Assembly (NCBI RefSeq): GCF_044324875.1
Contig: NZ_CP172186.1
Origin: Escherichia coli
GTDB lineage: Bacteria > Pseudomonadota > Gammaproteobacteria > Enterobacterales > Enterobacteriaceae
Reading direction: 5' to 3' (one strand)
Length of the DNA: 64,000 bases
The notes under the pieces were generated by a model. That model saw nothing but the letters and a program-made list of their open reading frames with translations, was not told the DNA's origin and made no database searches. Made by a program: the position numbers and the translations under genes. Positions 12,205 to 48,066 of this stretch are shown one piece after another; within the stretch, counting starts at the first letter, position 1; every line of letters begins with the position of its first letter.

Positions 12205-12408
12205 TCAATGATCGGAAGCATGCCAAATCGTGATCGATTGTGATGCCAAACTGTGATCGGAGATGGATGCCAAATCATGATCGATTCGAATGCCAAACTG
12301 CGATCGATTCAGATGCCATTTTGCAGGTAAAAATGGCAATTTTTTTCATGCTGTATTTTTGCCATTTATTTTCTTTGAAATGGTTTTTTTCTTCATATCA
12401 GCAAATAA

Positions 12409-12876
12409 TTATTTCTTATTCTGTTTTCTCCAGGTCCATGGTGGTACCGGATTTTTATCTGCCCATAATCCCCGCTTCAGGGCGCGGGCATCACGCTGGA
12501 GCGGCGGGAGAGTATAGTCATTATTGTAGTCCGGGTACACCCAGGCAGCGCCGTTACGGACCTGCCAGCGATTTGCTTCTGTGCCGTCAGCGGTATAGAC
12601 CCGGCCGAGAATACGGCCATACCTGTCTGTCTGCGCGTATTGCACGGTTACGGGCTTTCCGGCCACCAGGTCCTTCAGCTGAGTGGCTGACCAGCGTCCA
12701 AAGGGCTGTTTCTTTTCCGGTGCATCAATATTAGCCAGACGGACCCTGACAGGCTTTTTGTCCTGTAATATTTCCAGCGTATCACCATCAAGAACGCGGA
12801 TGACGTGCCCCTGAATCTGTGCGGCACAGAGAGAAGCGGAAAAAATAATGGTGAGTGAAAAGATATATTTTATCAT
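12409..12876 (-). CDS. nuc: Secreted thermonuclease (staphylococcal nuclease/SNase-like) Nuc
   Basis: 155 aa, signal peptide, VIRVLDGDT and RLANIDAPE motifs typical of SNase fold. Confidence 0.8.
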   Translation of the reverse strand: MIKYIFSLTIIFSASLCAAQIQGHVIRVLDGDTLEILQDKKPVRVRLANIDAPEKKQPFGRWSATQLKDLVAGKPVTVQYAQTDRYGRILGRVYTADGTEANRWQVRNGAAWVYPDYNNDYTLPPLQRDARALKRGLWADKNPVPPWTWRKQNKK

Positions 12877-12978
12877 TTCATCGTCTCCTTTTTATTTATG
12901 AAAACAGGTGCAATTAATATTGCGAAATAATAACGTTCAGGTGTGTTTTTTTTGGCAGTGTGATACTTCACGCAGGGC

Positions 12979-13659
12979 ATGAATTCCAGTACGCTGATAT
13001 CCGTGATGATACGGCAACAGATATCCGGTGACGGTATGCAGGAACATATTGATTATCAGATTGAGAAATATCAGTTCAGGGCCAGGAATGAGTCACCGCG
13101 ACTGATGCGCCAGTGGGAAGATGTCATGCGTGAATGCCGTGATACCGGAGCAGGAGCCAGGGAGCGGCTGCGGATTGCCTTACTTAATGTTGATTATGTG
13201 ACCAGTTTTGAACTGCCGTTTCGTCTGCTGTTAACCCGGACACCGCAGATGATTGACAGCGTGCGGCGGGAATGGCAGCTCAGCCAGAAAAAAGTCGTAT
13301 TCAATGAGCGGCAGCGGGGATGTGTATACAGTCTGCAGAATGACTTATCCGGCGTGCCGGATAGCTTCAGTTACAGTCTTGCGACGCGAATACGGCGGGT
13401 GGACAGCTATGGCATGACGACGCGTTGTTTCACTGATATAGCCGGGCAGGTTAAAGCCCCGACAGCACGGCTGAAACTGGCGCTGGAAAGCGGGTTAATT
13501 GTCACCGCGCTGGATGGTCTGTTCTGGCTTGGTATTCAGCGTATTGCCGCAGATGTGCAGCGGCTGCGTCAGTCCGGAATGACAATCATCACCCGGGATG
13601 TTGAGGTCTCAGACTCGCTGACCGGAACCACACGGGTTGTTTCCGGGTACAGACTTTGA
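12979..13659 (+). CDS. Hypothetical protein, possible C-terminal DNA-binding helix
   Basis: 226-aa ORF divergent from nuc with AT-rich shared upstream region; no recognised family. Confidence 0.45.
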   Translation: MNSSTLISVMIRQQISGDGMQEHIDYQIEKYQFRARNESPRLMRQWEDVMRECRDTGAGARERLRIALLNVDYVTSFELPFRLLLTRTPQMIDSVRREWQLSQKKVVFNERQRGCVYSLQNDLSGVPDSFSYSLATRIRRVDSYGMTTRCFTDIAGQVKAPTARLKLALESGLIVTALDGLFWLGIQRIAADVQRLRQSGMTIITRDVEVSDSLTGTTRVVSGYRL

Positions 13660-14901: not shown

Positions 14902-15195
14902 TTGAGGCTGTATGCCGAAAGCGTTTTGTGGACGGCATGTAGCAGAAAGCCCCAGGCGATTTTTTTATCAATCAACCCAGGGCCCACTGTAATGCCTAGA
15001 CAACATTATAGTAGCCCGATGACGGCCGAAAGGCAATGGAGGGGCTGCGATGCCACAACGAACGTTTTTAATGATGTTAATCGTCGTCTGTGTGACGATA
15101 CTGTGTTTTGTCTGGATGGTGAGGGATTCGCTTTGCGGATTTCGTATCGAGCAGGGAAATACGGTGCTTGTGGCAACGTTAGCCTACGAAGTTAA
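14902..15195 (+). CDS. Possible pndC (mok-like) overlapping reading frame of the pnd locus
   Basis: ORF in alternative frame overlapping the Hok-family toxin gene, as in hok/mok loci; real start uncertain. Confidence 0.35.
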   Translation: MRLYAESVLWTACSRKPQAIFLSINPGPTVMPRQHYSSPMTAERQWRGCDATTNVFNDVNRRLCDDTVFCLDGEGFALRISYRAGKYGACGNVSLRS

Positions 15196-15202
15196 ACGTT
15201 AA
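15050..15202 (+). CDS. pndA: Hok/Gef-family type I toxin PndA
   Basis: Hand-translated 50 aa MPQRTFLMMLIVVCVTILCFVWMVRDSLCGFRIEQGNTVLVATLAYEVKR; GGAGG 9 nt upstream; not in ORF track (<60 aa). Confidence 0.85.
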   Translation: MPQRTFLMMLIVVCVTILCFVWMVRDSLCGFRIEQGNTVLVATLAYEVKR

Positions 15203-15339
15203 CGGGCAACACGGCGGTAGAGAATCTGCCGCCGGATTGTTGCGAAGGCTGACCTCAATGCGCCTTGTTTGTCTTTTTTACCGGACGACTGCTGGTTGCT
15301 GCTGTCCGGCAGCTATTATTTTTTCCGTCCTGTGCGTCA

Positions 15340-15555
15340 TCAATTATGACAGTCGCTCTCATTTAGTTGTCTCTGGTTAGATGTATTATTATATATTTTC
15401 GGGGTAATTCGATAAAAGTTATCCACTTCAGCACCAGACTGAATGATATATGCAATAAGATCTAAACGATGAATCTCGTATCGTGTACGTAACTCCATTA
15501 TTTCACGCCATGGAGTACCATGTCGTGCTGGAAAATTGCTGCGGGATTCAGACAT
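15340..15555 (-). CDS. Hypothetical small protein in AT-rich segment
   Basis: 71-aa ORF only; no recognisable domain. Confidence 0.25.
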   Translation of the reverse strand: MSESRSNFPARHGTPWREIMELRTRYEIHRLDLIAYIIQSGAEVDNFYRITPKIYNNTSNQRQLNESDCHN

Positions 15556-15828
15556 GATTTTATCTTTATGTTTTCTAGGTACTGCCTTGAGTGTGTGGAT
15601 ATGATAATTATTTATAATGATATTGTTATCTTTTATAGATAACTGATATGCAGAATTGTATTGATTTTGTCTACAGTGGGCAAGACAGTGCTAAGAATTT
15701 GTGGGGAAAACATAGAGACTCCATGCTGCGTCCTGAGATAGACGGCAGACAGGCATTCTGCCTGAAAAGAAAAAGCCGGTTCAGAGAAAACCGGCTGACG
15801 GATTATCGTCTAACAGTTGATAGCTACC

Positions 15829-16476
15829 TCAAAATACTTCTGCAACAGGAACACCGGCAACTTTTTCCCACTCTTTAACCCGATACCGGATCATCTGTGG
15901 GAAACGTTCCTTGTACTCATATCCACGTGCAGCCATGGTGTGCATGGTGTTGGCCAGCGTCCTTGCTGAGATGCCGGAGATCTCAAGAGGAATCATCGGC
16001 AGACTCACATAGGTGGTGTGGATTTCCAGCTTGCCGTCCTCAGCAACCGTGCGGGTAAAGTTGTGAATATCCAGACCAATCACATCCATCACATTGTTTG
16101 GATAAATACGCACATACAGCATGGTGCCGTTTTTAATGTCGATCCCGAAATAACAACTCTTCGAGAATGACAGTTGCTCATAATCGCTGGTCGGCGCAAA
16201 GGGACTGCTTTCTTTTATCTGCTGAACAACCTGCTGGACTTTCTTTTTCTTCGCCCTGGTTCTTAGATATAGCCAGAGTAATGGGAGGATAATCAGCGTT
16301 GAACATCCATATGTTATCATATAGATATTAGGGGAGGAGTATCTGGCGTAGCTAATACTTAATGTACCTAATATTGCATATATTAATAGGAATGGTATTC
16401 CAATAATAAAATAAGCATTGCGGATCAGGTAATAATATGCCCACCAGGAAGGATATCTGTTTTTTGTTGTACTCAT
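15829..16476 (-). CDS. Inner-membrane protein, putative entry-exclusion ExcA-like
   Basis: 215 aa, N-terminal TM helices, AT-rich, immediately downstream of traY as excA is in IncI1; assignment by position. Confidence 0.45.
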   Translation of the reverse strand: MSTTKNRYPSWWAYYYLIRNAYFIIGIPFLLIYAILGTLSISYARYSSPNIYMITYGCSTLIILPLLWLYLRTRAKKKKVQQVVQQIKESSPFAPTSDYEQLSFSKSCYFGIDIKNGTMLYVRIYPNNVMDVIGLDIHNFTRTVAEDGKLEIHTTYVSLPMIPLEISGISARTLANTMHTMAARGYEYKERFPQMIRYRVKEWEKVAGVPVAEVF

Positions 16477-16563
16477 AATAAACCTCCATATTCACCTGAA
16501 TGTATTTTAATCTCTTCAGGTGAATATGGCAATGGTATTTTAGTGGTTTTTCGATATTTTCAT

Positions 16564-18723
16564 TTATTGTTTTATTCCGTCTTTATCATCTCTATTAATA
16601 TTTTTCAGTTTTTCTTCACGAACGCCAGGTGTTCTGCGCATATTGGTATTACCTCCGGCAATAATATCTTTGACGGATGAAACCATATTCCCCAGCATAT
16701 TAACACCGTCACGTCCGCCCAGAAAATTAATCACATGGTCAGGCAGATAAGCCTGAAGCGCAAAAACGGCCGCAACCAGCGTGGTACAGACTCGGGCATA
16801 AATCAGCAAAAATCCTGCCATGCTGAATAGCCCCGTCAGGGAGTCTGTCTGTACATTGGCCAGTGCAGCTCCAAACAACGAATTTAGAATGGTTCCGGCA
16901 GCAATGATAGCGACTGACGCAAAGAAGAACCCGAATACCATCAGCAGCGGTCTGATCATGCTGTCTATCAGGTAGATGTAACCGTAAGCGGCCCGGCTTC
17001 CCCGGTCCTGGCTTGTTCCCAGGTGGGTGGCCGCCCAGAGGGGGCCAGCAGCACATCCAATCAGCACGCTGACTATCCAGTTACCAATGCCGGTCATCCA
17101 GAAGATAAACGGAATAAACGGCAGGTAAATGGATAACGAAAAGCCGGCACAGAACAGCAAAAACAGCAGGAAGTAGAGCGGTGGAGCGGCTGCTTCCATA
17201 AAAGCCTTTGCAGCCTCAGGTAAGCCCGTAACGGTATTAACCAGCCGACCAAAAATGGAGTTGCTGCCGGCAGTCGAAAGCACCCTGACTGTGGTATAAC
17301 CCGCCCAGATGCTTTCAGTAATGCCCATAGTGTAATCACCGATATTTTTCATTTTTATCAGTGGGTTTAGTTGGTCAGTGGTTGTGCCGGTTTTTGTAAA
17401 GATTGTTGCTACATTATTTGTAAGTTCTACTCCAGGAATTGAACTTAAAATAGCACTTTGCGGATCGTTACTGCCTGCGCTGTTATATTCATTTGCTGAT
17501 TTTAATGTTCCCAGTGCAGGAGTATACGTTGAGTTCTGTAGCTGTGCCTGGTAAGCCCCCTTGACTTCCTTCAGGAACTCCGTATCCCCGGCTTCGCCCA
17601 GTGACGAGACGCCACTCACAGTAGGAGCGCGGTTGGCCAGGTCTTCCAGTCGCTGGTTGGCGGTGGCAAAGGTCTGGTACCAGGCGCCCAGGGCAACCCA
17701 GCCGTAGGTGGTCAGGTAGGATTTCAGCTGCTCCCTGCGCTCAGTTTCTGCGTTATCTGCCGGCAACGCCTTCTGCACCGTTTCTTCATACCGGTTGGCA
17801 GCCTGCTGAATACGGCTTTCAATATCCGGCAGGTTGCCGTTACCCGTGTCGCGTCGGGTCCGGTACGCTGACACAAATTCCTGCGCCGCGCTGTCCAGGT
17901 CACGGAGCATGGTATCCATGGCGGAGCGCTGTGCCGTCAGAACCCCCTGATATTCCGTTTCAATGAAGGGATTGAAAAAATGGGCCAGCGCGGACTGCTT
18001 GTTACTGCCGTTTCCTTTCACGGAGAGACTCACACTCCCGCAGGTGGCGCTGCCATTTGAGACGGTGACGGTATATCTGCCATTCTCTGTCCGTGAGGAT
18101 TCGCTCATGGGCGGCGTTGATGAACGTGCGGTACGGTTAAAGTCATCGAGGCCCGTATTCATGGCGTGTTTGCACAGTTCCATCTCCAGTATTCCCCGTG
18201 CTGCCGTGCGGGTGGAGACATGTACTGGCTGTACGGTCATTGAATAGCCTTCAGCGATGTTTTCTGCCGCTGTCTGAACCATGATATTGGCGGAACCGAT
18301 GCCCATGATGGATGCGCCCCACAGCATGACCAGTTGTGCCAGACTCCAGCCGGAAGCGGTGGGCACAATCATCATAAAACCGCTCACAATACTGAGCATT
18401 CCGACGACGTCCCGTCCGTTGTTAAAGACATTGCCCTGGTGTCCCGTGCGGACAGCATGACGGATACCAATAAACAGAAACCAGACTATCCCCATCGTGG
18501 CGATAATTGCGTTAAACACCATGAACAGGTTGCCAATGATGGTGTTGCTGCTGGCTGTCAGGGGATTTGTGACCACATCACCAAAAATGGTGACCAGTGC
18601 CTGGCGCGACAGGTCATCCGGATTGGTGGCGGCACTCACAATGTCCTGATAGGTGACGAAAGCCTGTGCAGGTACGGCAGCCAGCGCCAGACCTGCACTC
18701 AGTGCTCTGGGTATGATTTTCAC
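16564..18723 (-). CDS. traY: TraY, polytopic inner-membrane protein (DotA-like)
   Basis: 719 aa, signal peptide plus many TM helices; terminal gene of tra block. Confidence 0.75.
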   Translation of the reverse strand: MKIIPRALSAGLALAAVPAQAFVTYQDIVSAATNPDDLSRQALVTIFGDVVTNPLTASSNTIIGNLFMVFNAIIATMGIVWFLFIGIRHAVRTGHQGNVFNNGRDVVGMLSIVSGFMMIVPTASGWSLAQLVMLWGASIMGIGSANIMVQTAAENIAEGYSMTVQPVHVSTRTAARGILEMELCKHAMNTGLDDFNRTARSSTPPMSESSRTENGRYTVTVSNGSATCGSVSLSVKGNGSNKQSALAHFFNPFIETEYQGVLTAQRSAMDTMLRDLDSAAQEFVSAYRTRRDTGNGNLPDIESRIQQAANRYEETVQKALPADNAETERREQLKSYLTTYGWVALGAWYQTFATANQRLEDLANRAPTVSGVSSLGEAGDTEFLKEVKGAYQAQLQNSTYTPALGTLKSANEYNSAGSNDPQSAILSSIPGVELTNNVATIFTKTGTTTDQLNPLIKMKNIGDYTMGITESIWAGYTTVRVLSTAGSNSIFGRLVNTVTGLPEAAKAFMEAAAPPLYFLLFLLFCAGFSLSIYLPFIPFIFWMTGIGNWIVSVLIGCAAGPLWAATHLGTSQDRGSRAAYGYIYLIDSMIRPLLMVFGFFFASVAIIAAGTILNSLFGAALANVQTDSLTGLFSMAGFLLIYARVCTTLVAAVFALQAYLPDHVINFLGGRDGVNMLGNMVSSVKDIIAGGNTNMRRTPGVREEKLKNINRDDKDGIKQ

Positions 18724-20569: not shown

Positions 20570-21147
20570 TCTTTTTTCTCCGTTTTCAGGGGATACAGGA
20601 TGTCTGGTACGCGGTGACTGTGTGATTCCGGCAGCGGAGCCAGCGGGAAACACTGGAAGCGGCGCGTGATCCATCCCTGACGGTTACGGTTATCGATGAG
20701 CGTGAAGGTACGACGCTTCACGCGTTTCAGTGTCGGGGTGTCGCTTTCCATGACCGGCCAGTCTCCGGCTGTGAGTGCCGGTGTGCCGGGGACATCCGGC
20801 CACAGCCAGGTGTTGTCAGACATCAGCGCCGTGAGAGGCGAGGGCAGAAGCCAGTGAATGACATGCTGTATATCAAAAGGCGGTCGCTCCGGCACGTTAA
20901 CCTGCCAGGTGGCCGTTGTTATCAGCGTGCCTGTCTCTCCGGGCAGGGCCAGGCGAATACCACTCATCTCCCCGTCAGCCCGTCTGTCACTGGCAAAAAT
21001 GACCCGGGGATTGGGGGACGGTCGCAGTGTGAAGCAGGCGGACGGCAGGGTGAAGCTGAAACTGTCACCGTCCACGCGCAGCGTTTTCAGGAAGACCTGT
21101 CCCCGTGCAGGACGCCGGCAGCGGGGAGTGATGTGTATGCTGTACAT
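20527..21147 (-). CDS. traV: TraV
   Basis: 206 aa, stop/start coupled to traU; assigned by synteny. Confidence 0.5.
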   Translation of the reverse strand: MYSIHITPRCRRPARGQVFLKTLRVDGDSFSFTLPSACFTLRPSPNPRVIFASDRRADGEMSGIRLALPGETGTLITTATWQVNVPERPPFDIQHVIHWLLPSPLTALMSDNTWLWPDVPGTPALTAGDWPVMESDTPTLKRVKRRTFTLIDNRNRQGWITRRFQCFPLAPLPESHSHRVPDILYPLKTEKKECKDNQQPHCLHSW

Positions 21148-24100
21148 CAGAGGTGATATCCCTGCTTACGGATGAGTTCCGCAGCCAGATCATGGATGAC
21201 GTTTTCACTGTCATGTGTACGGGCGCGGTGTTCTATCAGTGAGGTGGCTGAACCACGGGGAAAGTTTTCTGCCAGGATCTGGCGTGCCCGCAGTGACCCG
21301 AGCTCCTGCGTCAGCGCACGTCTCAGGGCGCTGTCTTTGGGTGAGGAATTCAGAGCCCACAGCTCCAGTGGACCGAGAGTGAATTTCAGGATCCGGGCCA
21401 GCGTACCGTTTTTTACACGGAACACAGCCAGTACCGGGACACCGCTGCCATCCGGTGCAGCCCCTTCCGGCATTTTCAGAAAGCGCCGCAGGGTGACTTC
21501 AGGGACACCAAAATTATCCCGCAGAAACGGAATTTCGTCAGGGCGGTAACGCAGCAACCAGAGGGTGTTGGCGGATTTGAGAACTGCCGGTGGATAGTCC
21601 TGCAGTAGCTGGGTGCTCAGCACTGTGCGTATCCCGAACTTACGCTGCTCCAGCTCCTGGGTGTCCAGGGCTTCCCAGATGAAGTTGATCCCTTTTGCAT
21701 TGTGCAGTTCGTCATAGACTTTGGTCTTGACCTCCTGATCAAGCTGTTCAATGCGGCGGAAAATCACCTCATGGTAGCGTGGGTCGAGATTTTTCCGTAT
21801 TTCCTCCTGATACTGCGGCAGGACAAAATCCCCGCCGGCGATTTGTCCTGCCAGCAGGTACATGATGCCGGTGCGCAGACGCCCGGCAGGTGTCTTGTCA
21901 CCGGCCACATTGTTCAGATCAACGGCCACAACGCGGGTGTCGGGGCTGAGCATAAACCGGGTACAGCCGGACATCATCGGGTAGTCACTGTGTCCCTGAT
22001 CGAGGGCACGGCGGATGTAGTCCAGTAACAATTCTGCTGAGTTATCGCGCTGAACTGTGCCGAACACATCCCGGATGGATGGCTGTCCCAGCAGGGCGGA
22101 CATTTCAGCCAGCAGGGGCATGGCCTGGTAGTGTGCCCGCTGGGCTGCGGGGATATTGCCAGCCATATGCAGCATGTCCCTGATTTCAAACCAGGTGGCA
22201 GCATTCCACCATCCAGAGTCATGTTGTTCTGCGATGCCACTCTCTTCCAGGGCGAGATCCACAAGGGGCTCTGTTCCTGCACGGTACAGTCTGGGGTTGT
22301 TTTCGCCATACTCCCTGAAGGCCAGATCCACCAGGTTGCTTATGATTTGCCGGGTGTCACCGGGATTACAGGGCTGACCGGTGCCGGTATCCACGCACAG
22401 TGCGCAGAGTACAGATACCATGAAGTTCTTTTCCGGGGTGGCGGGTTTTTTAGCACCGTACATCACATCAAACAGGTTACGGGTGTGTTCCGGATCATTG
22501 CTCAGAATGATCCCCACGGCTTCGTCCTTTCTCTGCTCCGGCAGGCTGTCACGGATAAGCTGTACCAGTCCCTGTGCACTGAATCCCTTGTCGATATAGG
22601 CAATGAAAGGCAGGTTCTTCTGGGCTGAGGCTATCTGGATCTCCGACAGTGCGTTGATGAGTACCGATTTGCCCAGACCGGGTGCGCCGGGCGTCAGTTC
22701 CGTGTGCTTGTTCTGTTGTGACGATGCCAGTGCGACCTCCCATGCAGAGCCGTCCTCGGTGTGCATCATCAGATTTCCCTGTCCCCGCCAGACAGAGCCT
22801 GCCCTGTTCAGGGGAAACAGGGAAAGGGCGTGTGAAAGGGGCGGGTAAAGGGGGATCGGGCCGGAGCTGTGGGAGGCTGCCAGAACCGTGTTCACCCAGG
22901 CACGTCTCGGATCACCGAAGGTGGTGGTGGTGCCGCATACCCCCCAGCCTTCCAGCGCAGATTTCAGGAGAGCCTGGTTACGGGTACAGACTTCCCGGCT
23001 GTTTCCCCATGTGGTGGCAACAATGGTCATGATACAGACCGGATCATGTTTGTTGATGTCATTCAGCATCATCACCGAGTCATACATGGGCCGGAGAGGG
23101 GAAATAAAGCTGCTGTAGGTTAGCAGGGTTTTCTTGACTCCAAGCGCCTTCATGCCGCCGGGCATCAGATCCATCCGGATACGCCAGGGGATTGCGCGGG
23201 GCACATCCCTGACCAGCTGGTTGAATGTCCGCAGATTCTGGGGTGGCAGGGTAATGGCGACCATACCGTGCCAGAGGTCACCGGCCTTTATCAGGCTGCC
23301 GTGTGTTTCAGGCTGTGTGGTGAATAACTGCAGATTCAGCGACGGTGCGTGGAATACAGAGGTATCCTCGCCCTGTCGCCAGCCGGCAGGACGGGCATCT
23401 TCAGGCAGATGAGGCTGCCATACTGCAGGTGTGCTGTTGCGCTCCAGTTGACGGCGGATTTCCCGTCCCACTTCATGAATATCCATCAGGCGAACCAGCA
23501 GACCATCAGAATCATGTGTCAGGGCCTGCTCCAGCGTGTCCAGAAAGGCGTCATGCCGTATTTTGAGTGCGGAAAGTGTCCAGCGCCATGGATCCTGCGC
23601 AAATCGGGCTGGCGGAGCGTGTTCAGCGAGTTTCCTGATACGGGTCTGGTGGTCCTTGCGATCGGTCCGGCTCAGCAGTTCTTCAGAGCTCCAGACGGTC
23701 AGCCAGCAGCGTTCCCGGACAAGCCAGGGGGTGAGGGTGGTGACTTTTTCATCCAGAACGTCCTGAAGCAGGATCCCCGTACGTGCGATGGATTTTCGCT
23801 GGGGTAAGAGCATGGCTTCGATTTCATCCCTTCCACGCTCCGGATCGCGTTCGAAAACAAAACTGATTTTGTGACCGGTGTTTTTATAGGCAGTGTTCAT
23901 TCGCTCTGCCAGCGCTGTAATCAGTGATTCCAGTGTGCCGGGGGCTGTCAGGTCCGGGTTTTCATCCATTTCTTTCAGGGCACCGCTGATTTCAAAGACG
24001 GAAAGGTAATACCCCTGTTTTGTGGTGGCAATGTAGGGGGCTTTCAGCCAGGGGCGGCGTTCGCGGTCCTGTTGGTCCAGACCGATGACGGTGTGCAGAT

Positions 24101-24203
24101 CACAGTAATCGGGGAAGAATGCGGAAACGGAATACCGTGACAGGGTACTGATACAGTCTTCAATGGCAAAAATAATGCGGTTGATATTCATGGCATGGAG
24201 CAC
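21147..24203 (-). CDS. traU: TraU ATPase (DotO/IcmB-like, VirB4-class)
   Basis: 1018 aa, Walker A GAPGLGKS; size matches IncI1 TraU. Confidence 0.85.
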   Translation of the reverse strand: MLHAMNINRIIFAIEDCISTLSRYSVSAFFPDYCDLHTVIGLDQQDRERRPWLKAPYIATTKQGYYLSVFEISGALKEMDENPDLTAPGTLESLITALAERMNTAYKNTGHKISFVFERDPERGRDEIEAMLLPQRKSIARTGILLQDVLDEKVTTLTPWLVRERCWLTVWSSEELLSRTDRKDHQTRIRKLAEHAPPARFAQDPWRWTLSALKIRHDAFLDTLEQALTHDSDGLLVRLMDIHEVGREIRRQLERNSTPAVWQPHLPEDARPAGWRQGEDTSVFHAPSLNLQLFTTQPETHGSLIKAGDLWHGMVAITLPPQNLRTFNQLVRDVPRAIPWRIRMDLMPGGMKALGVKKTLLTYSSFISPLRPMYDSVMMLNDINKHDPVCIMTIVATTWGNSREVCTRNQALLKSALEGWGVCGTTTTFGDPRRAWVNTVLAASHSSGPIPLYPPLSHALSLFPLNRAGSVWRGQGNLMMHTEDGSAWEVALASSQQNKHTELTPGAPGLGKSVLINALSEIQIASAQKNLPFIAYIDKGFSAQGLVQLIRDSLPEQRKDEAVGIILSNDPEHTRNLFDVMYGAKKPATPEKNFMVSVLCALCVDTGTGQPCNPGDTRQIISNLVDLAFREYGENNPRLYRAGTEPLVDLALEESGIAEQHDSGWWNAATWFEIRDMLHMAGNIPAAQRAHYQAMPLLAEMSALLGQPSIRDVFGTVQRDNSAELLLDYIRRALDQGHSDYPMMSGCTRFMLSPDTRVVAVDLNNVAGDKTPAGRLRTGIMYLLAGQIAGGDFVLPQYQEEIRKNLDPRYHEVIFRRIEQLDQEVKTKVYDELHNAKGINFIWEALDTQELEQRKFGIRTVLSTQLLQDYPPAVLKSANTLWLLRYRPDEIPFLRDNFGVPEVTLRRFLKMPEGAAPDGSGVPVLAVFRVKNGTLARILKFTLGPLELWALNSSPKDSALRRALTQELGSLRARQILAENFPRGSATSLIEHRARTHDSENVIHDLAAELIRKQGYHL

Positions 24204-24366
24204 TCCGGTAAGGATGAATCATCACGGTCTGATATTTTTTGATGCCACAGCAGGGGATGTGGCATGAAAAAACAGCAGAGGAAATAAATAATCTGTTGAG
24301 GGACAGGTGCGTATTTCTGTGTGATTACAGTAAATAATAAAAATGTAATAAGGTGGAAACACGCTG

Positions 24367-24489
24367 TCAGCTTAGTGAATTTACAGGCGGATAAGTGATT
24401 TTATTAATATGTACAACAATAGATTTTCTTCTTTTATTTTGTATAAATACCGGTGGGACATAAAAGAAACGGAGACTGCAGAGACAGAG
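24367..24489 (-). pseudogene. 3' remainder of the tra-region gene split by the Tn3-family insertion
   Basis: Reading frame of 31268-31678 continues in frame across the ATGAA duplication for 41 codons to a stop at 24367. Confidence 0.5.
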
Positions 24490-24526
24490 ATGAAGGGGTT
24501 CTACGCCGGAACCGCCGAAATTTCCG

Positions 24527-25120
<594 letters not shown>

Positions 25121-25148
25121 TAAACTCCCTGAGAAAGAGGTAAACAGA

Positions 25149-25475
25149 ATGACTAAAAATACTCGTTTTTCCCCCGAAGTCCGTCAGAGGGCGATTCGTA
25201 TGGTTCTGGAAAGTCAGGGCGAATATGACTCACAGTGGGCGGCAATTTGTTCCATTGCCCCAAAGATTGGCTGTACACCGGAGACTCTGCGTGTCTGGGT
25301 ACGCCAGCATGAGCGGGATACCGGAGGCGGTGATGGCGGGCTCACCACCGCTGAACGTCAGCGTCTGAAAGAGCTGGAACGTGAAAATCGTGAACTGCGC
25401 CGCAGTAACGATATCCTTCGCCAGGCTTCCGCTTATTTTGCGAAGGCGGAGTTCGACCGCCTCTGGAAAAAGTGA
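25149..25475 (+). CDS. IS3-family transposase OrfA (HTH)
   Basis: 108 aa [19 protein letters not shown]..., leucine-zipper region; overlaps orfB start. Confidence 0.9.
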
Positions 25476-26362
25476 TGCCACTGCTGGATAAGCTGCGTAA
25501 GCTGTACGGGGTCGGACCGGTATGCAGTGAACTACATATTGCCCCGTCAACGTATTACCACTGTCAGCAACAGCGACATCATCCTGATAAACGCAGTGCC
25601 CGTGCGCAGCGCGATGACTGGCTGAAGAAAGAGATACTGCGCGTATACGATGGGAATCATCAGGTATACGGTGTGCGTAAAGTCTGGCGTCAGTTGTTAC
25701 GGGAAGGAATCAGGGTAGCCAGATGTACAGTGGCGCGCCTCATGGCGGTTATGGGACTTGCCGGTGTTCTCCGGGGTAAAAAGGTCCGCACTACCGTCAG
25801 CCGGAAAGCCGTTGCCGCAGGCGACCGCGTAAACCGTCAGTTTGTGGCAGAACGTCCTGACCAGTTGTGGGTGGCTGATTTTACTTACGTCAGCACATGG
25901 CAGGGGGTCGTCTATGTGGCGTTCATCATTGATGTGTTTGCCGGATACATCGTGGGGTGGCGGGTCTCATCGTCTATGGAAACGACATTCGTGCTGGATG
26001 CTCTGGAGCAGGCGTTATGGGCCCGTCGACCGTCCGGCACAGTCCATCACAGTGATAAAGGTTCTCAGTATGTATCGCTGGCCTACACACAGCGGCTTAA
26101 GGAAGCCGGATTACTGGCATCAACAGGAAGTACTGGTGACTCGTATGACAACGCGATGGCGGAGAGCATCAATGGCCTTTACAAAGCGGAGGTAATACAC
26201 CGTAAGAGCTGGAAAAACCGGACAGAAGTGGAGCTGGCCACACTCACGTGGGTGGACTGGTATAACAATCGACGATTGCTGGAAAGGCTGGGCCATATCC
26301 CACCGGCAGAAGCAGAAAAAGCTTATTATGCTTCCATCGGAAACGATGATCTGGCAGCCTGA
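25472..26362 (+). CDS. IS3-family transposase OrfB (DDE)
   Basis: 296 aa, rve domain; made as OrfAB fusion by -1 frameshift in this family. Confidence 0.9.
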
Positions 26363-26405
26363 GTTCACAGATAAAACACTCTCCAGGAAACCCGGGGCGG
26401 TTCAA

Positions 26406-28271
26406 AACGTCAGCCACATCACAAAATGGTAGCTGTTCATAGAATCGCGTCTCTTTTGCCTTATTACGATTGACAACGGGTTTATGCCAAGTCAGCTTCT
26501 GCGTTTCTCTATCGTATATCACATGCTTCAACTTTCCCTGTTTTAGCTCGCGGTTGAATGCTTTCCATTGTCGATGCAGTTCAGACTCCAACTTCTTTAG
26601 TTGTGTTTTGATCGGCTTGTGCAAAAATGGGATATTCATTTCAGCCAGCACCGTCGCCTTTTTTCCTTCTGGTACCAGTTCATCAGAAAGATGACGATGA
26701 CGGAGACTGTTATTGAGGTGGAATTCACCTGCCTGAAAGCGTTTTCTAATCTGTCGGTAGAGCCAGAACTCATAGCGCCCAGCATTCAGTCCAATGACTT
26801 CGCCACTCTCATCAAACTCTAGCAAATACGGGCGTAATCGTTTGGGTAATGTTCCCTTTGGGCATTCTGTTAGTGGTCGCTGCGAAAGCGTCTGCTTTTT
26901 ACTGAATACCACCTTAAGCCAGTTCATGGCTTTTACCCACGGACTATCGCTGACTACACTGTTGAGGTCGAGCGACAGAAATAATGGTCGAAGGTGACGC
27001 CGGATTAATCCGGTCATACCATCGACAGCTTGCCACTGTAATGCCAGTTTGCTGACGGGTTTTACGCTCATACGCTGAGCGGTGGTTTGCAGTGTCTCCC
27101 GTGGCATAATCTTCCACGCTCTACGGCGCACTTCGCCAAAGGTGGTAAAGTCTGAGACACTATCATCAACATAAAGAGACAGCAGTCGTCCGATCTTAGG
27201 CGTTTCACGCCGGTGTTTTTCTTGAACGTCAACCAGAAGCTGCTTAGCTACACGGCGACTCTCATCCTCGATCTTTTTCAAATGGAAAAACATGGCTTCC
27301 ACCAAGTTATCGCTGAACTGACGATAACGAACCCATGCATAACACAGCAGATAAAGACGCGCCTGCTCGGGTTTCAGTTGACGCAGATCGTAAACGGTAT
27401 AGAAATTTGCCAGACTCGCGTAGTACAACAGGTTTTGCTGAGAAATATTCAGTGTAGGTAAAATATTGCAGGCTTTATGGTGCAGTGCTTCCAAAATGGT
27501 TCGTTTTTCCCTTTCTTGGGTCATCTGTCGCCATCCGAAGTCTCGGGCATCTTGCCTGAGAATGGCAAGGCGGGAAAGAGTTTCATCGCGTTCAATCAGC
27601 TTGTTCAAATGAGCAATAGTCGCGTCATCGAGTTGTTCCGTTAAAATATGTCCTAATCTTTGTCTTTCATTAGAAAGGACTTTGCTGACTAGCTCTTGAA
27701 GTGTGGTATAGCCGGGTCTGATAATTTTGTTCTCGTTGAGCCAGATAATTAGCTCTGTGGCAACAAATCCGGGAGTGATATCGCGGTGAACAATATGGAC
27801 AGCTTGTTGTTCAACCAATGAAGACAATGCTGAGGACCATGGACGATAATTATACAATTTGAATATTTTTTCTCGCTGAGCATAGCGTTCATATTTAGAG
27901 GGCGATTGAAGTGGAATTGACTCTCCAGGAAAATAACGACTCAGGATAAAGTTGCAGTCGTCCAAGACATCATGCCAATTGAAATGAAAAAACAGACTTT
28001 TAGCTTTAAAGTAAGCAATCTGCAGAATGCAACAAAGCTGCGCATGAAGCCCTTTTCGACTGTTGACTAACGCTAACTCCGATTCATCCAGAACCAAAAA
28101 CTCTAATTGTTGTGCATCATCGAAATCAGGGAGGCCATAGAGAGCTTCTTGTTCAGCATTACTTAATACCGCTAGTCGTTCACTTTTACCAGCGGCTTTA
28201 CCACCACTTACCATCTTGCCCCCCGAAATTAATGTCCGTAAGAGGATCGTTAAGCGGACAGTAATAACCAC
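26406..28271 (-). pseudogene. tnpA: Tn3-family transposase tnpA, N-terminal ~620 codons (interrupted, internal deletion)
   Basis: Tn3-type TnpA N-terminal region; ORF-track frame runs into IS629; combined fragments shorter than a ~1000-aa TnpA. Confidence 0.8.
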
Positions 28272-28362
28272 TTTTATAATCCGCCTATTTATTAGGCTGA
28301 CGTTGTCTCATATAACTGGTACGATATCAATCTCTTTTATCCCCCCTTAAACGTACATTAAT
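28272..28362. promoter_or_regulatory. Probable res site / divergent tnpA-tnpR promoter region
   Basis: Intergenic between divergently oriented tnpA and tnpR, the usual res position in Tn3-family elements; inferred, subsites not mapped. Confidence 0.4.
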
Positions 28363-28938
28363 ATGACTGGAATCAAGATTGGCTATGCTCGTTGCTCCAC
28401 AGACCAACAAGACCTAACTGCCCAGATAGATGCGCTGATAAATCTAGGCATTTCCACTGACAGGATCTATACAGACAAAGGACTGACTGGTTCAAACCGA
28501 CAGAGGCCGGGCCTAGAACAGGCGCTTGCAGCGGTTCGAGAGGGAGATACGCTAGTTGTTCCAAAACTAGATCGTTTAGCCCGTTCAGTACCTGATGCAA
28601 GAGGTATTGCTGATATCCTACAAGCTCGAGGAGCGAAACTCGCTCTAGGGGACAGTATCTATGATCCAACAGACCCGATGGGGAAAATGTTCTTCAATAT
28701 TCTTGCTACTTTTGCAGAGTTTGAAGGAGACCTTATTCGACTACGAACTAAAGAGGGGATGGCTGTTGCCCGTTCAAAGGGAAAATTGAAAGGAAAACAG
28801 CCTAAATTATCTGAAAAACAACAAAAAGAACTATGCCGTATGCGTGATACTGGCCAGTACTCTATCAGCGATCTAGCGGAACTATTTACCGTCTCGCGTG
28901 CAACGGTTTATCGAACACTTTCACGAGGACAAAAATGA
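28363..28938 (+). CDS. tnpR: Serine recombinase (resolvase) TnpR
   Basis: 191 aa, GYARCSTDQQ catalytic serine motif, C-terminal HTH. Confidence 0.9.
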   Translation: MTGIKIGYARCSTDQQDLTAQIDALINLGISTDRIYTDKGLTGSNRQRPGLEQALAAVREGDTLVVPKLDRLARSVPDARGIADILQARGAKLALGDSIYDPTDPMGKMFFNILATFAEFEGDLIRLRTKEGMAVARSKGKLKGKQPKLSEKQQKELCRMRDTGQYSISDLAELFTVSRATVYRTLSRGQK

Positions 28939-29149
28939 CCGATTTAACTACACAGCAACATCTAGTAAAAATTGTCCATGATTATGCCTGCCCTCAAAAG
29001 GGTCATGGACAGTCCATCAAAGGTTCAAATGGATTACATCTGCATTCAATACCCAGATTACTTCCGCTTTGCTAAATGGATAGAACGGTTGGCGTAGGGT
29101 ATTGTTGATGGTGTAATTAAAGTTCCTAAAGATCATTAAAATATCAGAT

Positions 29150-29188
29150 CGGAAATTTAGGCGGTTCCGGCGTAGAACCCAGAACCCC
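29150..29188. repeat. Internal third copy of the Tn3-family terminal IR (variant terminus)
   Basis: CGGAAATTTAGGCGGTTCCGGCGTAGAACCCAGAACCCC, same orientation as the right-end IR at 31234-31267. Confidence 0.8.
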
Positions 29189-29197
29189 TTATCCGAA

Positions 29198-30061
29198 TTA
29201 TTGTTCAGTTAACTTCATTTCGACAAGTAAAGGTAAATGATCTGAGACAGATGCATATGGCTTACTTTCAGGGGTCGCTCTATCTGACGGTTTAGGAATA
29301 TATACATCTTTAATGTCCCATTTTTGAGCATTTGATGTAAGTATATAATCAATTTTCCTGTCTGGATTCCATGATGGTGCCGTGTACTTCAATTCCTTAT
29401 CAGTGTCATTGAACCATGCTGTTAAATCCAAGTACTCTGTTGATTGAGGTGGTAAATTAAGATCACCCACTATAATTGGAAGTGCATTTTTAAACTGCCA
29501 AGAAGAGAATTTTGTTTGAAGAGTTCTTACTTGCTCTGCTCGTAATGGCTGCGTAGTGAAGTCCAAATGAGTAGTTACTAACATAACAGGCGCAGGATAA
29601 TTAGGGACATCAACTTCTACAGCACAGGCCGCTCTTTGCTCCGCACCTTTGATGTTAGGTAGTTCCATCCTTTTACTCAATTTCAAATCATACTTAGACA
29701 GTACTGCTGTACCATATTCCCCACCATCATGATCTATAGCCTTGCAGAAGTAATAATTCATTCCCAACTTATTAGCTATATACTCTGCTTGATTGACTGG
29801 GTTAGAACCCTCTTTACTAAAGTTCTTACCAGAACGCCTAGTCATGTTATCAACTTCTTGCAGTCCAATAATATCAACATTCATTTTACGAATTGCTTCT
29901 ACAATGGCATCAGTACTCCCCATTCTAGAGGCCATTATGTTATATGACCCAACACGAATACTATCGGTATCTGCTGGACCATCCATGAGGCGATCAGAAG
30001 CTAAAGTTGAAGAGGAAAGAACTATAAACCCTATAACCGCAGCAATGCTTGTTAATTTCAT
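29198..30061 (-). CDS. Secreted endonuclease/exonuclease/phosphatase (EEP, DNase I-like fold) family protein
   Basis: 287 aa, N-terminal signal peptide, SYNIM...GLQEV and C-terminal SDHLP motifs; AT-rich; cargo inside transposon. Confidence 0.7.
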   Translation of the reverse strand: MKLTSIAAVIGFIVLSSSTLASDRLMDGPADTDSIRVGSYNIMASRMGSTDAIVEAIRKMNVDIIGLQEVDNMTRRSGKNFSKEGSNPVNQAEYIANKLGMNYYFCKAIDHDGGEYGTAVLSKYDLKLSKRMELPNIKGAEQRAACAVEVDVPNYPAPVMLVTTHLDFTTQPLRAEQVRTLQTKFSSWQFKNALPIIVGDLNLPPQSTEYLDLTAWFNDTDKELKYTAPSWNPDRKIDYILTSNAQKWDIKDVYIPKPSDRATPESKPYASVSDHLPLLVEMKLTEQ

Positions 30062-30062
30062 T

Positions 30063-30390
30063 TGGATTTGCCCCTATATTTCCAGATACCTGTTATCACT
30101 TAACCCATTACTGGCTTGCTGCCGTAGATATTCCCGTGGCGAGCGATAACCCAGTGCACTATGCGGATGCCATTCGTTATAATGCTCGAACGCCTCTGCA
30201 AGGTTCTTTGCTGCCGTTAACCCGTCTGGTTTGGGCATGACACTGATGTAGTCACGCTTTATCGTTTTCACGAAGCTCTCTGCTATGCCGTTACTCTCCG
30301 GACTCCGCACCGCCGTGCTCTTCGGTTCAAGCCCCAACATCCGGGCAAACTGCCGTGTTTCATTAGCCCGGTAGCATGAACCATTATCCG
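30063..30390 (-). mobile_element. IS2 remnant (3' end of orfB plus terminal IR)
   Basis: IS2 end TGGATTTGCCCCTATATTTCCAGA; translation matches IS2 OrfB C-terminus; junction with IS1 approximate. Confidence 0.8.
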
Positions 30391-30937
30391 TCATCCATAT
30401 CACCACGTCAAAGGGTGACAGCAGGCTCATAAGACGCCCCAGCGTCGCCATCGTGCGTTCACAGAATACGTGCGCAACAACCGTCTTCCGGAGCCTGTCA
30501 TACGCGTAAAACAGCCAGCGCTGGCGCGATTTAGCCCCGACATAGCCCCACTGTTCGTCCATTTCCGCGCAGACGATGACGTCACTGCCCGGCTGTATGC
30601 GCGAGGTTACCGACTGCGGCCTGAGTTTTTTAAGTGACGTAAAATCGTGTTGAGGCCAACGCCCATAATGCGGGCAGTTGCCCGGCATCCAACGCCATTC
30701 ATGGCCATATCAATGATTTTCTGGTGCGTACCGGGTTGAGAAGCGGTGTAAGTGAACTGCAGTTGCCATGTTTTACGGCAGTGAGAGCAGAGATAGCGCT
30801 GATGTCCGGCGGTGCTTTTGCCGTTACGCACCACCCCGTCAGTAGCTGAACAGGAGGGACAGCTGATAGAAACAGAAGCCACTGGAGCACCTCAAAAACA
30901 CCATCATACACTAAATCAGTAAGTTGGCAGCATCACC
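30390..30937 (-). mobile_element. IS1 remnant (IR, insA, 5' two-thirds of insB) fused to the IS2 remnant
   Basis: IS1 terminus GGTGATGCTGCCAACTTA at 30920-30937; InsB sequence ends at WMTD then continues as IS2 OrfB. Confidence 0.8.
30607..30882 (-). CDS. insA: IS1 InsA
   Basis: 91 aa [30 protein letters not shown]... Confidence 0.85.
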
Positions 30938-31267
30938 CGCGAATTATTAAATAAATACCATGGGCTCTCTCGTATTAGCCAAAAATTAAGGCAAAAAGGC
31001 TCGAGACCTTAGTAATAGAACAAGAGCTTGAAGATACCGATGTCAATTGGTTTGAGACGTGCCTTAAAGCAAAAGAAAAAAGTTTGGCAGCAGCTTCCCC
31101 CAAAATCAGAGTTAGAAAACAAAGATGATTCGTGACCTTCTATATTAAGGTCACTCGTTATCAATGATATTAGAGTGCATAAGCAAATAGAAAGAACATA
31201 CCAGTCAATTACTTATACTTTCTTTGACTCAATGTCGGAAATTTCGGCGGTTCCGGCGTAGAACCCC

Positions 31268-31678
31268 ATGAAGTTGTTTTCTCCGTTTCCTTAATGAAAA
31301 TTCAGCCAGAGGCGCAGCAGGATGATTATGTAGTGCACTTAATGCCCTGTTGAACTGAAGTATTCCGGCAATATCCATCCATGAGAGATATTTATCGACG
31401 CTCACTGTGACGGTGATGCAGTCATGGGTACGGGATTTTTCATGAATTTCTGCAGCCAGAAAGAGCAGCCAGCCGCCGTTAAATGCCGGGTGGCGGAGAA
31501 TGAACCGGGCAATCTCTTTTTCAACTCCATCAGGCGGAATATCGTCCGTCAGTGTCCGGATAATAAAGTGCCGGAATGCATCAGCGGTGAACTGATATGC
31601 GGCAGAGAGGGTATCCATTTTTGTTCCTCTGTAAGTTGAGAGGGCCGGCAGAACGTCACCGGCACCGGTGTGTGTCAC
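31268..31678 (-). pseudogene. 5' part of the tra-region gene disrupted by the Tn3-family insertion
   Basis: ORF-track ORF 31229-31678 takes its last 13 codons from the transposon IR; native frame continues at 24489-24367. Confidence 0.55.
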
Positions 31679-44949: not shown

Positions 44950-46152
44950 TCAGAATGTGAACTGCAGTTGTGCAACGGCACCGTAGTTGTTGTCTGTGCC
45001 TGCTATACCCGCCACATCAATATGGACGACATCAAATGGTGAGATACCCAGCCCGGCGGTGAACGCACTGCCATCATTGCTGGCCAGATTCTGGCGGTAG
45101 CCTGCACGTAACTGTGCCCATTTCCAGGCATTAAATTCAGCACCAATGGCAGCAAACTGACGTTTACTGTCTGATGTGAAGCCACTGGCCGGGGTCAGGT
45201 CAACATCCAGTGCTGTAGTGAACATGTCGTTGTGCCAGGAGACACCGGCAGTCACCTGCGGGCGGATCCTGAAAGTTTCAGTGACACCGTTCACTTCTTT
45301 TGTCTCAATACTGCGGGGGAGCAGGTTCTGTGCGACCAGACCCAGTGTCCAGTTGTCATCCAGGTCCATGCTGGCCCCGATATCAGCGTTAATGCCGTTT
45401 CTGGTGTTGTGGTAACGGTCGCCTTTGAAAGCGCTGCTGTCGTAATTTTTAACCAGCACGTTGTAGCTAAACAGGTCAACACGCTGGAATTTTGGTGTGA
45501 AGCCCAGAGACCACTTTTGTCCGGCCGTTTCCAGTTCAGTAGCCAGAGCAATACCCACATCGGTGACCAGTGCGGCACGGGCAAAAGCCTGAGAGGTCAG
45601 TCTGTCTTTATCCACATCCTGACCGTTACTGTTTGCAATGCTTTCCAGATAGTTCAGGTCGGCATCACTGACTTTACCGTCGACACTGACCGTACCGTAG
45701 CTTTTCAGCATCAGAGCGGCAGCGAGGGTGTCACCGGGAAGAGTCGCCACAGCAGATGTTCCCACCTGTGCGTCAGCATGCGTGTGACGGAAGTCCTGAA
45801 GTCGCGTCTTCAGACGTGCAGCAGTCTGCGACACGTTGCTCTGACTGTCGATGGCACGATCAAAGGCTTTCCAGTCATCACTGATTTTGTCTGCGTTGTC
45901 ACTGATATTACCCGGATCGGACAATTGCCCACCAACGGACGGAATCAGAAGACTGAAGTCATCTTCCGGACCGGCTTTTGTCAGCAGGGCCGGGTTTGCC
46001 AGAGGTGCCACACCGTAGTGAGAGGAGGCTACCCCGGTTCCCCCCATTGCATCATTGCGGGCTTCAAAATATGAAGTTGCGGCTGTTGAATTAAAGGAAA
46101 ATAAAACAGCAGATGCGATGAGAGTTCGGGTAATGTGCATATTCATCATCAT
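44950..46152 (-). CDS. Outer-membrane beta-barrel protein (traG/traF position)
   Basis: Signal peptide after internal Met, alternating-hydrophobic strands, C-terminal aromatic QLQFTF. Confidence 0.55.
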   Translation of the reverse strand: MMMNMHITRTLIASAVLFSFNSTAATSYFEARNDAMGGTGVASSHYGVAPLANPALLTKAGPEDDFSLLIPSVGGQLSDPGNISDNADKISDDWKAFDRAIDSQSNVSQTAARLKTRLQDFRHTHADAQVGTSAVATLPGDTLAAALMLKSYGTVSVDGKVSDADLNYLESIANSNGQDVDKDRLTSQAFARAALVTDVGIALATELETAGQKWSLGFTPKFQRVDLFSYNVLVKNYDSSAFKGDRYHNTRNGINADIGASMDLDDNWTLGLVAQNLLPRSIETKEVNGVTETFRIRPQVTAGVSWHNDMFTTALDVDLTPASGFTSDSKRQFAAIGAEFNAWKWAQLRAGYRQNLASNDGSAFTAGLGISPFDVVHIDVAGIAGTDNNYGAVAQLQFTF

Positions 46153-46241
46153 TTCAGTTTCCTGGTTTGAGGTGTTTTGGGTACAGCAACGGTATGACAC
46201 GACTGTGCCATTAAAAATTTACTGGTTTTTTCTCTGCGTTA

Positions 46242-47063
46242 TTACCAGGGTAATAACGGTATACTGAATAACTCAGCAGGTAATATTTTTCCTGTCATCA
46301 GATATTCTGCCTGTGCCGGACGAAGCGTTACGGTCCGGACGGATGTCTTTGCATATAAATTGCGGGCAGTGTGAAACCAGTTTTCTTTTTCCTTATTCAT
46401 TCTTACAGGTGATAAAGAAAGTACAGGATAAATGATGGCTTTATTAATTTCTTTTTTCTTGCGGAACAGTACACCGCAATATTCCTGTGAATGAACACCG
46501 GCAAAAGGAAAACTGTGCCAGATAATAATATCCACATTATCGCTGGCTGAAATAAGCTGGCAGAACGCATCCTGTGTTGCTGGCCACTCACCGGCACGGC
46601 TTAAAGGATAACGTACCCTGCCGTTCAGCCATTCCGGGTTGAGATAAAACCAGTCAGCCAGAGCAGTCAGAATCTCTCCTGTCAGATAATCTGCGAGTTT
46701 GTCCGGGTCACGGAAAACGGCAGGACGGATATTCCAGGGAGCCAGTAACGTTGTCATCGTTGTTACGCAGACATCATGTGCCTGCATGATGTGTTCTGTC
46801 CGGCAGATAAGACGGTGAACGATGTTTTCAGCCGGGAGAAACATTTCAGTTAATGCATCTTCGACCAGGATACGCGTCAGGTCGGATACAGAAAGGGAGA
46901 GTTGCTCGCTCATTATTCCGAGTGCTTCTCTGACGCCCTGCGGATAACGGATCTGCAGGGGAGTGGACTGCAACTGGCGGTTATTGAGCAGAGCTTCACT
47001 AATCCGGGCCCTGTCAATGGAGAGCATCATGCGGGCAGCAATGCCTGTGCTGTTGGGTTTCAT
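46242..47063 (-). CDS. Hypothetical protein (tra-region, traE/traF position)
   Basis: 273-aa ORF; no recognised domain. Confidence 0.4.
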   Translation of the reverse strand: MKPNSTGIAARMMLSIDRARISEALLNNRQLQSTPLQIRYPQGVREALGIMSEQLSLSVSDLTRILVEDALTEMFLPAENIVHRLICRTEHIMQAHDVCVTTMTTLLAPWNIRPAVFRDPDKLADYLTGEILTALADWFYLNPEWLNGRVRYPLSRAGEWPATQDAFCQLISASDNVDIIIWHSFPFAGVHSQEYCGVLFRKKKEINKAIIYPVLSLSPVRMNKEKENWFHTARNLYAKTSVRTVTLRPAQAEYLMTGKILPAELFSIPLLPW

Positions 47064-47322
47064 TTCACCTCCGTGCGGTTCATATGTTAAGTCTAAAGAG
47101 CGTGTTTACTGAACGGAAACGAGTTATTTCGATCGTTATGATCGAGTGTGTTTCAAGAGTGCTTTTAACTCTGTTTTAAGCGTGAATGAAAAGGATTCGG
47201 ACAGGACGTGATTTAGTATGCCGCTGGTCTGGCATTATGCTGCAGAGCAGACGGAGTCAGGAGATTGAAAGTATTTCGTTATATAATCTTTTCCTTTTCG
47301 GGATGAAATCAACGAGGTTCGT

Positions 47323-47643: not shown

Positions 47644-47734
47644 AAAAGTTGTTTATATATTGGCTCTATGTAAAAAGAATGGTACCTCTGCCAGAGTTCC
47701 CGGCGTTATTTTTATGTGTTGGGGCCATGAATGT

Positions 47735-48055: not shown

Positions 48056-48066
48056 AAATTATTTGT

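Follow-up and report, generated by a model that had tools for sequence, protein, structure and literature searches.

An intact gene for a predicted exported phosphoesterase carried as cargo of a decayed Tn3-family transposon in Escherichia coli

The DNA analysed here, referred to as the window, is a stretch of 64,000 nucleotides from Escherichia coli (RefSeq assembly GCF_044324875.1, contig NZ_CP172186.1). At positions 29198–30061, on the minus strand, it holds a gene for a 287-residue protein of the endonuclease/exonuclease/phosphatase (EEP) superfamily. We found that this EEP gene is true cargo of a Tn3-family transposon, a unit that spans 24495–31267, and that the gene is under purifying selection. 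The gene is real and intact, and its product is rather likely to be an exported metal-dependent phosphoesterase, predicted from its sequence to be catalytically competent. Its relatives form a small clade of uncharacterised proteins, mainly from Vibrionaceae, Aeromonas and Pasteurellaceae. The copy in the window is a decayed passenger, probably promoterless and probably poorly expressed. The parts of the unit are given below, with the strand where one applies; L numbers denote loci used for comparison, IS an insertion sequence and ORF an open reading frame.

24490–24494: left target-site duplication ATGAA (5 bp), of which the empty site in NZ_CP027370 has one copy.
24495–24526, plus strand: IRL, the left terminal inverted repeat, 32 nt, 100% complementary to 31236–31267; the same end occurs in Providencia (L003) and Proteus (L014).
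24527–24907, minus strand: 3′ remnant of tnpA, the C-terminal end of the transposase (NF033527 positions 893–954; aligns to Providencia L003 4034–4447).
24908–25094: 187-bp end remnant of IS100 (IS21 family), in place of 857 bp of tnpA.
25095–26404, plus strand: complete 1310-bp IS3-family IS inside tnpA (25-nt inverted repeats; IS3-family transposase ORFs; alignment gap in pLH50-c-A).
26405–28271, minus strand: 5′ two-thirds of tnpA, truncated and inactive (NF033527 positions 1–566 of 954, 345 bits against a cut-off of 500).
28363–28938, plus strand: tnpR, which codes for a resolvase of the serine recombinase type and is oriented divergently to tnpA.
29150–29188, plus strand: internal right-end inverted repeat (29150–29180, 97%) plus a 7-bp tip duplication (GTAGAACCC-AGAACCCC).
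29198–30061, minus strand: EEP-family gene, 287 aa, ATG start; predicted signal peptide, residues 1–21; mature protein about 30 kDa.
30064–30385, minus strand: 3′ end of IS2 (C-terminus of orfB and right inverted repeat; NF006918 IS2 TnpB, E 4e-70, residues 92–204 of a chimeric ORF; compared with the sequences of L002–L005).
30386–30937, minus strand: 5′ part of IS1 (insA and the start of insB), joined to the IS2 remnant.
30938–31235: right arm, left over from a second Tn3-type element whose decayed left-end-like repeat (IRL′) is present in Vibrio copies and lost from the enterobacterial lineage.
31236–31267, minus strand: IRR, the right terminal inverted repeat (100%), the end used in transposition of the cargo-carrying unit.
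31268–31272: right target-site duplication ATGAA (5 bp), paired with the left copy.

The unit has the structural marks of a Tn3-family transposon with a passenger gene. Its 32-nt terminal inverted repeats are perfect and start with GGGG, and it holds a resolvase gene and, truncated in the window, the gene of a Tn3-family DDE transposase. Its 5-bp duplication is matched by an empty site, since the transposon-free IncK2/Z plasmid NZ_CP027370 has a single ATGAA (L050 896–900) within a small hypothetical ORF between traT and traU. The same unit was found on Providencia rettgeri p12100-PER (L003), with an intact 3048-nt tnpA and with AGTAA flanks; a tnpA of this length is also intact in L014 and L015. 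On chromosome 2 of Vibrio europaeus PP-638 (L017 5423–7578), a 2.16-kb derivative lacks tnpA and tnpR and holds the EEP gene alone between the same ends, flanked by TAATT. The target duplications ATGAA, AGTAA and TAATT thus record three independent insertions, and hence the EEP gene moves with the element. The first-pass annotation, made from the window sequence, had placed the gene between an internal repeat and the right terminal repeat and had proposed that it is mobilised along with the transposon; the repeats in the window bear out the first statement, and the target duplications at three sites, with the empty site, the second.

The unit shares with other passenger-carrying Tn3-family transposons the GGGG-starting repeats, the 5-bp duplications, the divergent tnpA and tnpR, and a passenger inside the ends. 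The V. europaeus form is a mobile-insertion-cassette-like transposon derivative; like mobile insertion cassettes and TIME-like elements, it is non-autonomous and bounded by inverted repeats. On plasmid pVT1 of Vibrio tapetis, an IS6-family element stands in place of the tnpA-tnpR part. Unlike usual Tn3-family passengers, the EEP cargo lies outside a recognisable original right end, marked by the 7-bp tip duplication, and its outer limit is an end that belongs to a second, decayed element. The literature search returned no published name for this transposon, and a 2026 paper on IncK2 plasmids mentions neither the transposon nor the EEP gene.

Since the original right end and the second decayed element are still visible, the route of capture is legible. 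The internal repeat is the true right end of a basic 4.7-kb tnpA-tnpR transposon that exists without the EEP gene. Two Proteus terrae plasmids (99.9% identity) have this short transposon with its end at precisely window position 29180, and the same short-form end is found in plasmids of Vibrio campbellii, V. parahaemolyticus and Photobacterium damselae (93–94%); none of these carries the EEP gene. Every copy that does carry it has the 7-bp tip duplication at the internal end, 10 bp from the EEP stop codon. In the Vibrio copies, some 190 bp of sequence separate the EEP start codon from the decayed IRL′ (GGGGTTCTGCGCCGGAAC) upstream of it, and the terminal IRR lies about 380 bp beyond this repeat. 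In the enterobacterial lineage the IRL′ vestige has been removed by a deletion of about 80 bp.

From these junctions we infer the following mechanism. The 4.7-kb transposon would have inserted 10 bp past the EEP stop codon, and a second, related element about 190 bp upstream of the gene. The transposase would then have used the outer left end together with the distal right end, making the whole unit of about 6.2 kb mobile, with 5-bp target duplications. In the simplest reading, the EEP gene and its promoter would be chromosomal DNA trapped between two Tn3-type elements. The source of the gene would be marine Vibrio-type bacteria, from which the transposon could have carried it to a poultry E. 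coli plasmid. On this plasmid, of the IncK2/Z type, the unit inserted into the small ORF that lies between traT and traU, and its decay followed. The locus records how a Tn3-family passenger was acquired, with the original right end and its tip duplication still in place and a new end supplied by a second decayed element. An intact copy, a transposase-less derivative with the EEP gene only, and a fossil copy all survive.

The protein itself was identified by its Pfam profile and its predicted structure. The PF03372 (Exo_endo_phos) profile matched residues 39–275 over model positions 2–225 of 225 (E 1.2e-16), and the AlphaFold (AF2) model had a pLDDT of 93.7 and a pTM of 0.89. The four-layer alpha/beta-sandwich fold of solved EEP enzymes is present in the 287-residue protein. 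When 47 homologues were aligned, N41, E69, G117, H165, G199, D200, N202, D238, D274 and H275 were invariant, and Y116 was kept in at least 90% of the sequences. The catalytic and metal-binding set is therefore complete: N (motif I), E (QE), Y/H, GDxN, D and SDH. Alignment with E. coli ExoIII by hhalign paired five catalytic residues (N41/N7, E69/E34, Y116/Y109, D200/D151 and N202/N153). EEP-type motifs had been noticed at first sight of the sequence, and both the family match and the His, Asp and Glu residues on which that assignment depended proved to be there (N41, E69, Y116, H165, D200, N202, D238, D274 and H275).

The ratio of nonsynonymous to synonymous substitution rates (dN/dS) of the EEP gene was 0.12 against the V. 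tapetis copy and 0.07 against a prophage copy of 80% identity. Such values mark the gene as a selected coding sequence and exclude a chance ORF. The window allele differs from the common allele in one residue only, G75R, at a variable position. Two insertions, GKNFSKEGSNP after motif II and PKPSDRATPESKPY before SDH, are peculiar to the Vibrio-type clade. Conserved basic residues are found at R76, K123, R143, R235 and K236.

The protein would be a Sec-exported, Mg2+-dependent phosphoester hydrolase of about 30 kDa. By analogy with solved EEP enzymes, E69 and N41 would bind the metal, the H275–D238 pair would activate the attacking water, and D200, N202, H165 and Y116 would hold the scissile phosphate.

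Export is predicted from the N-terminus. In the segment MKLTSIAAVIGFIVLSSSTLA, followed by SD, a charged part, a hydrophobic part and small residues (n/h/c) succeed one another as in a Sec signal peptide, as judged by eye. An equivalent hydrophobic N-terminus occurs in all 18 close homologues, in two of them with a lipobox-like LAAC or LLGC. C106 and C146 are both kept in 16 of these 18 and both missing in the remaining two, which suggests a C106–C146 disulfide that would fit an exported protein. We consider it probable that the protein is exported by the Sec route and is periplasmic or secreted, in keeping with the signal peptide first proposed for it.

The EEP gene stands out from the plasmid backbone in base composition, as had also been remarked from the letters alone. 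Its GC content is 38.4%, and that at third codon positions (GC3) is 29%, as against 61–64% in the flanking tra genes; the 1-kb segment at the gene has 39% GC, compared with about 55–59% for the backbone.

The EEP gene was found in 32 of 5426 complete E. coli genomes, plasmid-borne in all and mostly from chicken sources; it is also on P. rettgeri p12100-PER and V. tapetis pVT1. The window region is essentially identical to the E. coli poultry plasmid pLH50-c-A (IncK2/Z, NZ_CP100501) except for the IS3-family element at 25095–26404, which pLH50-c-A lacks. The window allele is identical to WP_081521068 of that plasmid, which RefSeq, like WP_052244185, names ‘endonuclease/exonuclease/phosphatase family protein’. 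A generic annotation thus already exists. The protein adds one more uncharacterised member to a familiar superfamily, and its transposon is of a kind that is well understood. For a specialist these findings are unsurprising, and the gene is one without a demonstrated phenotype.

The gene on pVT1 is the same gene (pVT1_73, WP_012397054), with 97.9% nucleotide identity and six amino-acid differences. A 2011 paper on pVT1 reported a signal sequence and ExoIII-family similarity for pVT1_73; V. tapetis secretes a nuclease activity of unknown source, and pVT1_73 was flagged as a candidate (PMC3033894). The Tn3-family context is not described in that paper (PMC3033894).

The closest clade is small, with about 23 clusters among 5.8 billion, at 44–80% identity, from Vibrio, Aliivibrio, Photobacterium, Aeromonas and Pasteurella. 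The genes of most close homologues are solitary, with unrelated surroundings, and no general synteny was seen among the nine examined. One homologue of 80% identity (L012 8001–8864, from Logan SRR25120492; the cluster is also present in Vibrio tarriae and V. mimicus) is a prophage moron. Its prophage has a Stx-phage-like terminase and portal, and the gene lies between the portal gene and the holin and GH108 endolysin genes, just upstream of these lysis genes. A search of a phage collection returned only two distant homologues (24–30% identity). PHROGs and PADLOC gave no matches for the protein, and so do not connect it with any known phage family or defence system. The literature search found nothing on COG3568, the accessions of the EEP protein, or EEP proteins with signal peptides in Vibrio. 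Carriage by transposon, plasmid and phage makes this an accessory gene but does not name its substrate.

For the substrate, our tentative preference, somewhat short of even, is extracellular or periplasmic nucleic acid, the protein acting as a non-specific nuclease or phosphodiesterase in scavenging or in degradation of foreign DNA. This preference, like the ranking of the alternatives below it, is a guess. A weak lean towards it comes from sub-threshold NCBIfam matches to xth, MnuA and ExeM/NucH, from the flagged candidate pVT1_73 (98% identical), and from carriage by the transposon, plasmids and a prophage.

Several results weigh against this reading. The exodeoxyribonuclease III equivalogs TIGR00633 and TIGR00195 scored 33.2 and 20.8 bits, against cut-offs of 99.05 and 182.55, and the ExeM/NucH and MnuA models gave 19–21 bits against 300 and 185, with only 23–35 residues matched. 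Profile and structure searches placed no characterised enzyme close to the protein. The mature protein is acidic (isoelectric point 5.4), and no Pfam domain besides PF03372 was detected in it, in contrast to the extracellular EEP nucleases Xds and ExeM/NucH, which have additional DNA-binding domains. The native promoter and ribosome-binding site (RBS) are lost in the window, where the protein may not be made at all. Finally, a gene cluster with two glycerophosphodiester phosphodiesterases (GDPDs) hints at phosphodiesters other than nucleic acids.

This cluster was seen in Aeromonas veronii (L008 1–9416) and Aliivibrio sp. S4MY1 (L018). It comprises an ABC importer, a GDPD, a ROK regulator, the EEP gene, a secreted protein of 482 residues that weakly matches ConA-like lectins, and a second GDPD, which is secreted, and may be an extracellular phosphodiester-scavenging module. 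It bears on an unlikely but not negligible alternative, namely that the protein is an exported phosphodiesterase on lipid-derived or glycerol-linked phosphodiesters (a sphingomyelinase, a phospholipase-C-like enzyme, or one that degrades glycerophosphodiesters or polymers), which would feed uptake or damage host membranes. We take the cluster as a hint and not as evidence, since no other arrangement recurred among the nine homologues and there was no general synteny.

Structural comparison did not single out any characterised subfamily. The nearest structures were uncharacterised bacterial EEP proteins, followed by nSMase2, nocturnin/CCR4 and TDP2. The family profile likewise matched unannotated structures best (4ruw at 3e-25, 3teb and 3g6s), then nocturnin and sphingomyelinase C (about 1e-15 to 1e-16). 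A single-sequence search of PDB sequences gave nothing relevant, and the AFDB50 matches were all uncharacterised EEP proteins, among them proteins of 30–43% identity in Citrobacter, Serratia, Klebsiella and Kluyvera. The bacterial structures 4ruw (Beutenbergia), 3l1w (Enterococcus), 3g6s and 3mpr (Bacteroides) and 3teb (Leptotrichia) are uncharacterised, have 17–24% identity to the EEP protein, and differ from it in that the two clade-specific insertions belong to the Vibrio-type proteins. Nocturnin, CCR4 (CNOT6L), PDE12, TDP2 and nSMase2 have 17–25% identity to it, which gives no basis to transfer substrate specificity. Nocturnin, CNOT6L, PDE12 and TDP2 are intracellular eukaryotic enzymes that act on nucleotide, RNA or DNA-adduct substrates, and the substrate of nSMase2 is sphingomyelin. 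The view taken at the outset, that the protein cannot be assigned to a characterised subfamily, still holds after these searches.

Somewhat less likely again than the lipid-directed alternative is an exported phosphomonoesterase, or a nucleotide or sugar-phosphate phosphatase, for scavenging of phosphate or nutrients. Its models are Bacteroides BT3783 (a mannose-6-phosphatase), nocturnin (an NADP(H) 2′-phosphatase) and ANGEL2 (a 2′,3′-cyclic phosphatase). These phosphatases and unannotated bacterial relatives (3mpr, 3g6s, 3l1w, 4c1r, 6bt1 and 6rw0) are among the closest structures and profile matches, and the basic residues R76, K123, R143, R235 and K236 would fit a small anionic substrate. 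However, identity to the phosphatase models is only 15–25%, the ranking mostly reflects the shared core fold, and no Pho-regulon or glycan-utilisation context was present around the close homologues examined.

The first-pass annotation had also named CdtB, DNase I and sphingomyelinase for structural comparison, with a virulence or DNA-degrading factor in mind. The EEP fold stood, but an affinity to CdtB or DNase I did not, both being clearly more distant than the uncharacterised EEP proteins, nSMase2 and nocturnin. The EEP protein has the superfamily and the catalytic residue set in common with ExoIII/Xth, DNase I and CdtB. Only this shared superfamily and the export signal speak for a toxin, whether a genotoxin like CdtB or one of the DNase I type that acts on the host, and we regard such a toxin as highly improbable. 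Membership of the CdtB/DNase I group was rejected on structural rank, CdtB not being the closest structural relative, and on context. The neighbours in the window are tnpR and IS remnants, and cdtA or cdtC was adjacent neither here nor in the homologue contexts examined.

The copy in the window can no longer move by itself. Its tnpA has lost 857 bp and is interrupted by the IS100 remnant and the IS3-family insertion; with the transposase destroyed, the element could move only with a transposase supplied in trans. Expression of the EEP gene is also doubtful. Other copies have a 165-bp AT-rich native leader with an AAGGTG RBS and two promoter-like sites, as seen in Providencia (L003). In the window and in pLH50-c-A this leader is absent, and only 2 nt separate the EEP ATG from the right end of IS2, which is in turn joined to the 5′ part of IS1. 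The native promoter and RBS have thus been replaced by an IS2/IS1 chimera, so that expression would need read-through. The IS1 part is fused in frame to the IS2 part, giving a 204-residue hybrid transposase ORF (30074–30688), which stops 12 nt before the EEP ATG.

The gene on this plasmid could therefore be a silent hitch-hiker, its coding sequence intact but without a phenotype, its promoter and RBS lost and its transposon dead; we give this reading appreciable weight, though well under even. The replacement of the native leader and the disruption of tnpA by IS100 and IS3-family elements speak for it, as do the rarity of the gene among complete E. coli genomes and the finding that most E. coli plasmid copies are IS-flanked remnants. 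On the other hand, the ORF is intact, with only the G75R change. The GGGG near the end of the chimeric ORF is a possible weak RBS, which would allow read-through or coupled translation. In addition, a sigma-70-like site with 10 of 12 matches spans the IS1/IS2 junction (30411–30383, minus strand) and is directed at the EEP gene, although such sites are no commoner here than in shuffled sequence. Promoter and terminator scans around the gene were no richer than those of shuffled sequence, and hence such predictions carry little weight.

Beyond this plasmid, the protein might stand for a clade of exported EEP phosphodiesterases from which the mobile elements that carry them (here a Tn3-family transposon, plasmids and a Vibrio prophage) themselves profit. 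Such a protein could be a nuclease, periplasmic or extracellular, by which incoming DNA is destroyed, or a new secreted colonisation or virulence enzyme; we consider this a long shot. Vibrionaceae, Aeromonas and Pasteurellaceae include naturally competent bacteria. Mobile elements can be deleted through natural transformation, and destruction of incoming DNA would prevent it. If the protein is indeed an exported nuclease or lipid phosphodiesterase, an accessory trait would be passing from marine and aquaculture Vibrio-type bacteria to poultry E. coli plasmids, and given such an activity the link between these reservoirs would be of some epidemiological interest.

A few further observations concern the plasmid around the transposon. 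The small hypothetical ORF that the unit interrupts (24204–24494 and 31268–31678) lies in an IncI-type transfer operon, and directly downstream of it is a gene for a traU-like ATPase (1018 aa, 21147–24203); a polar effect of the insertion on conjugation is possible. Just to the right of the transposon, at about 31366–31377, some 255 bp are missing relative to transposon-free IncK2/Z plasmids. The missing segment lay between 12-bp direct repeats, and its deletion fuses two small hypothetical ORFs between traT and traU. Other stretches of low GC content (40–47%, against about 55% for the backbone) are found at 9001–10000, 12001–13000, 15001–17000, 46001–50000, 53001–54000 and 63001–64000, which suggests that these are further acquired plasmid segments.
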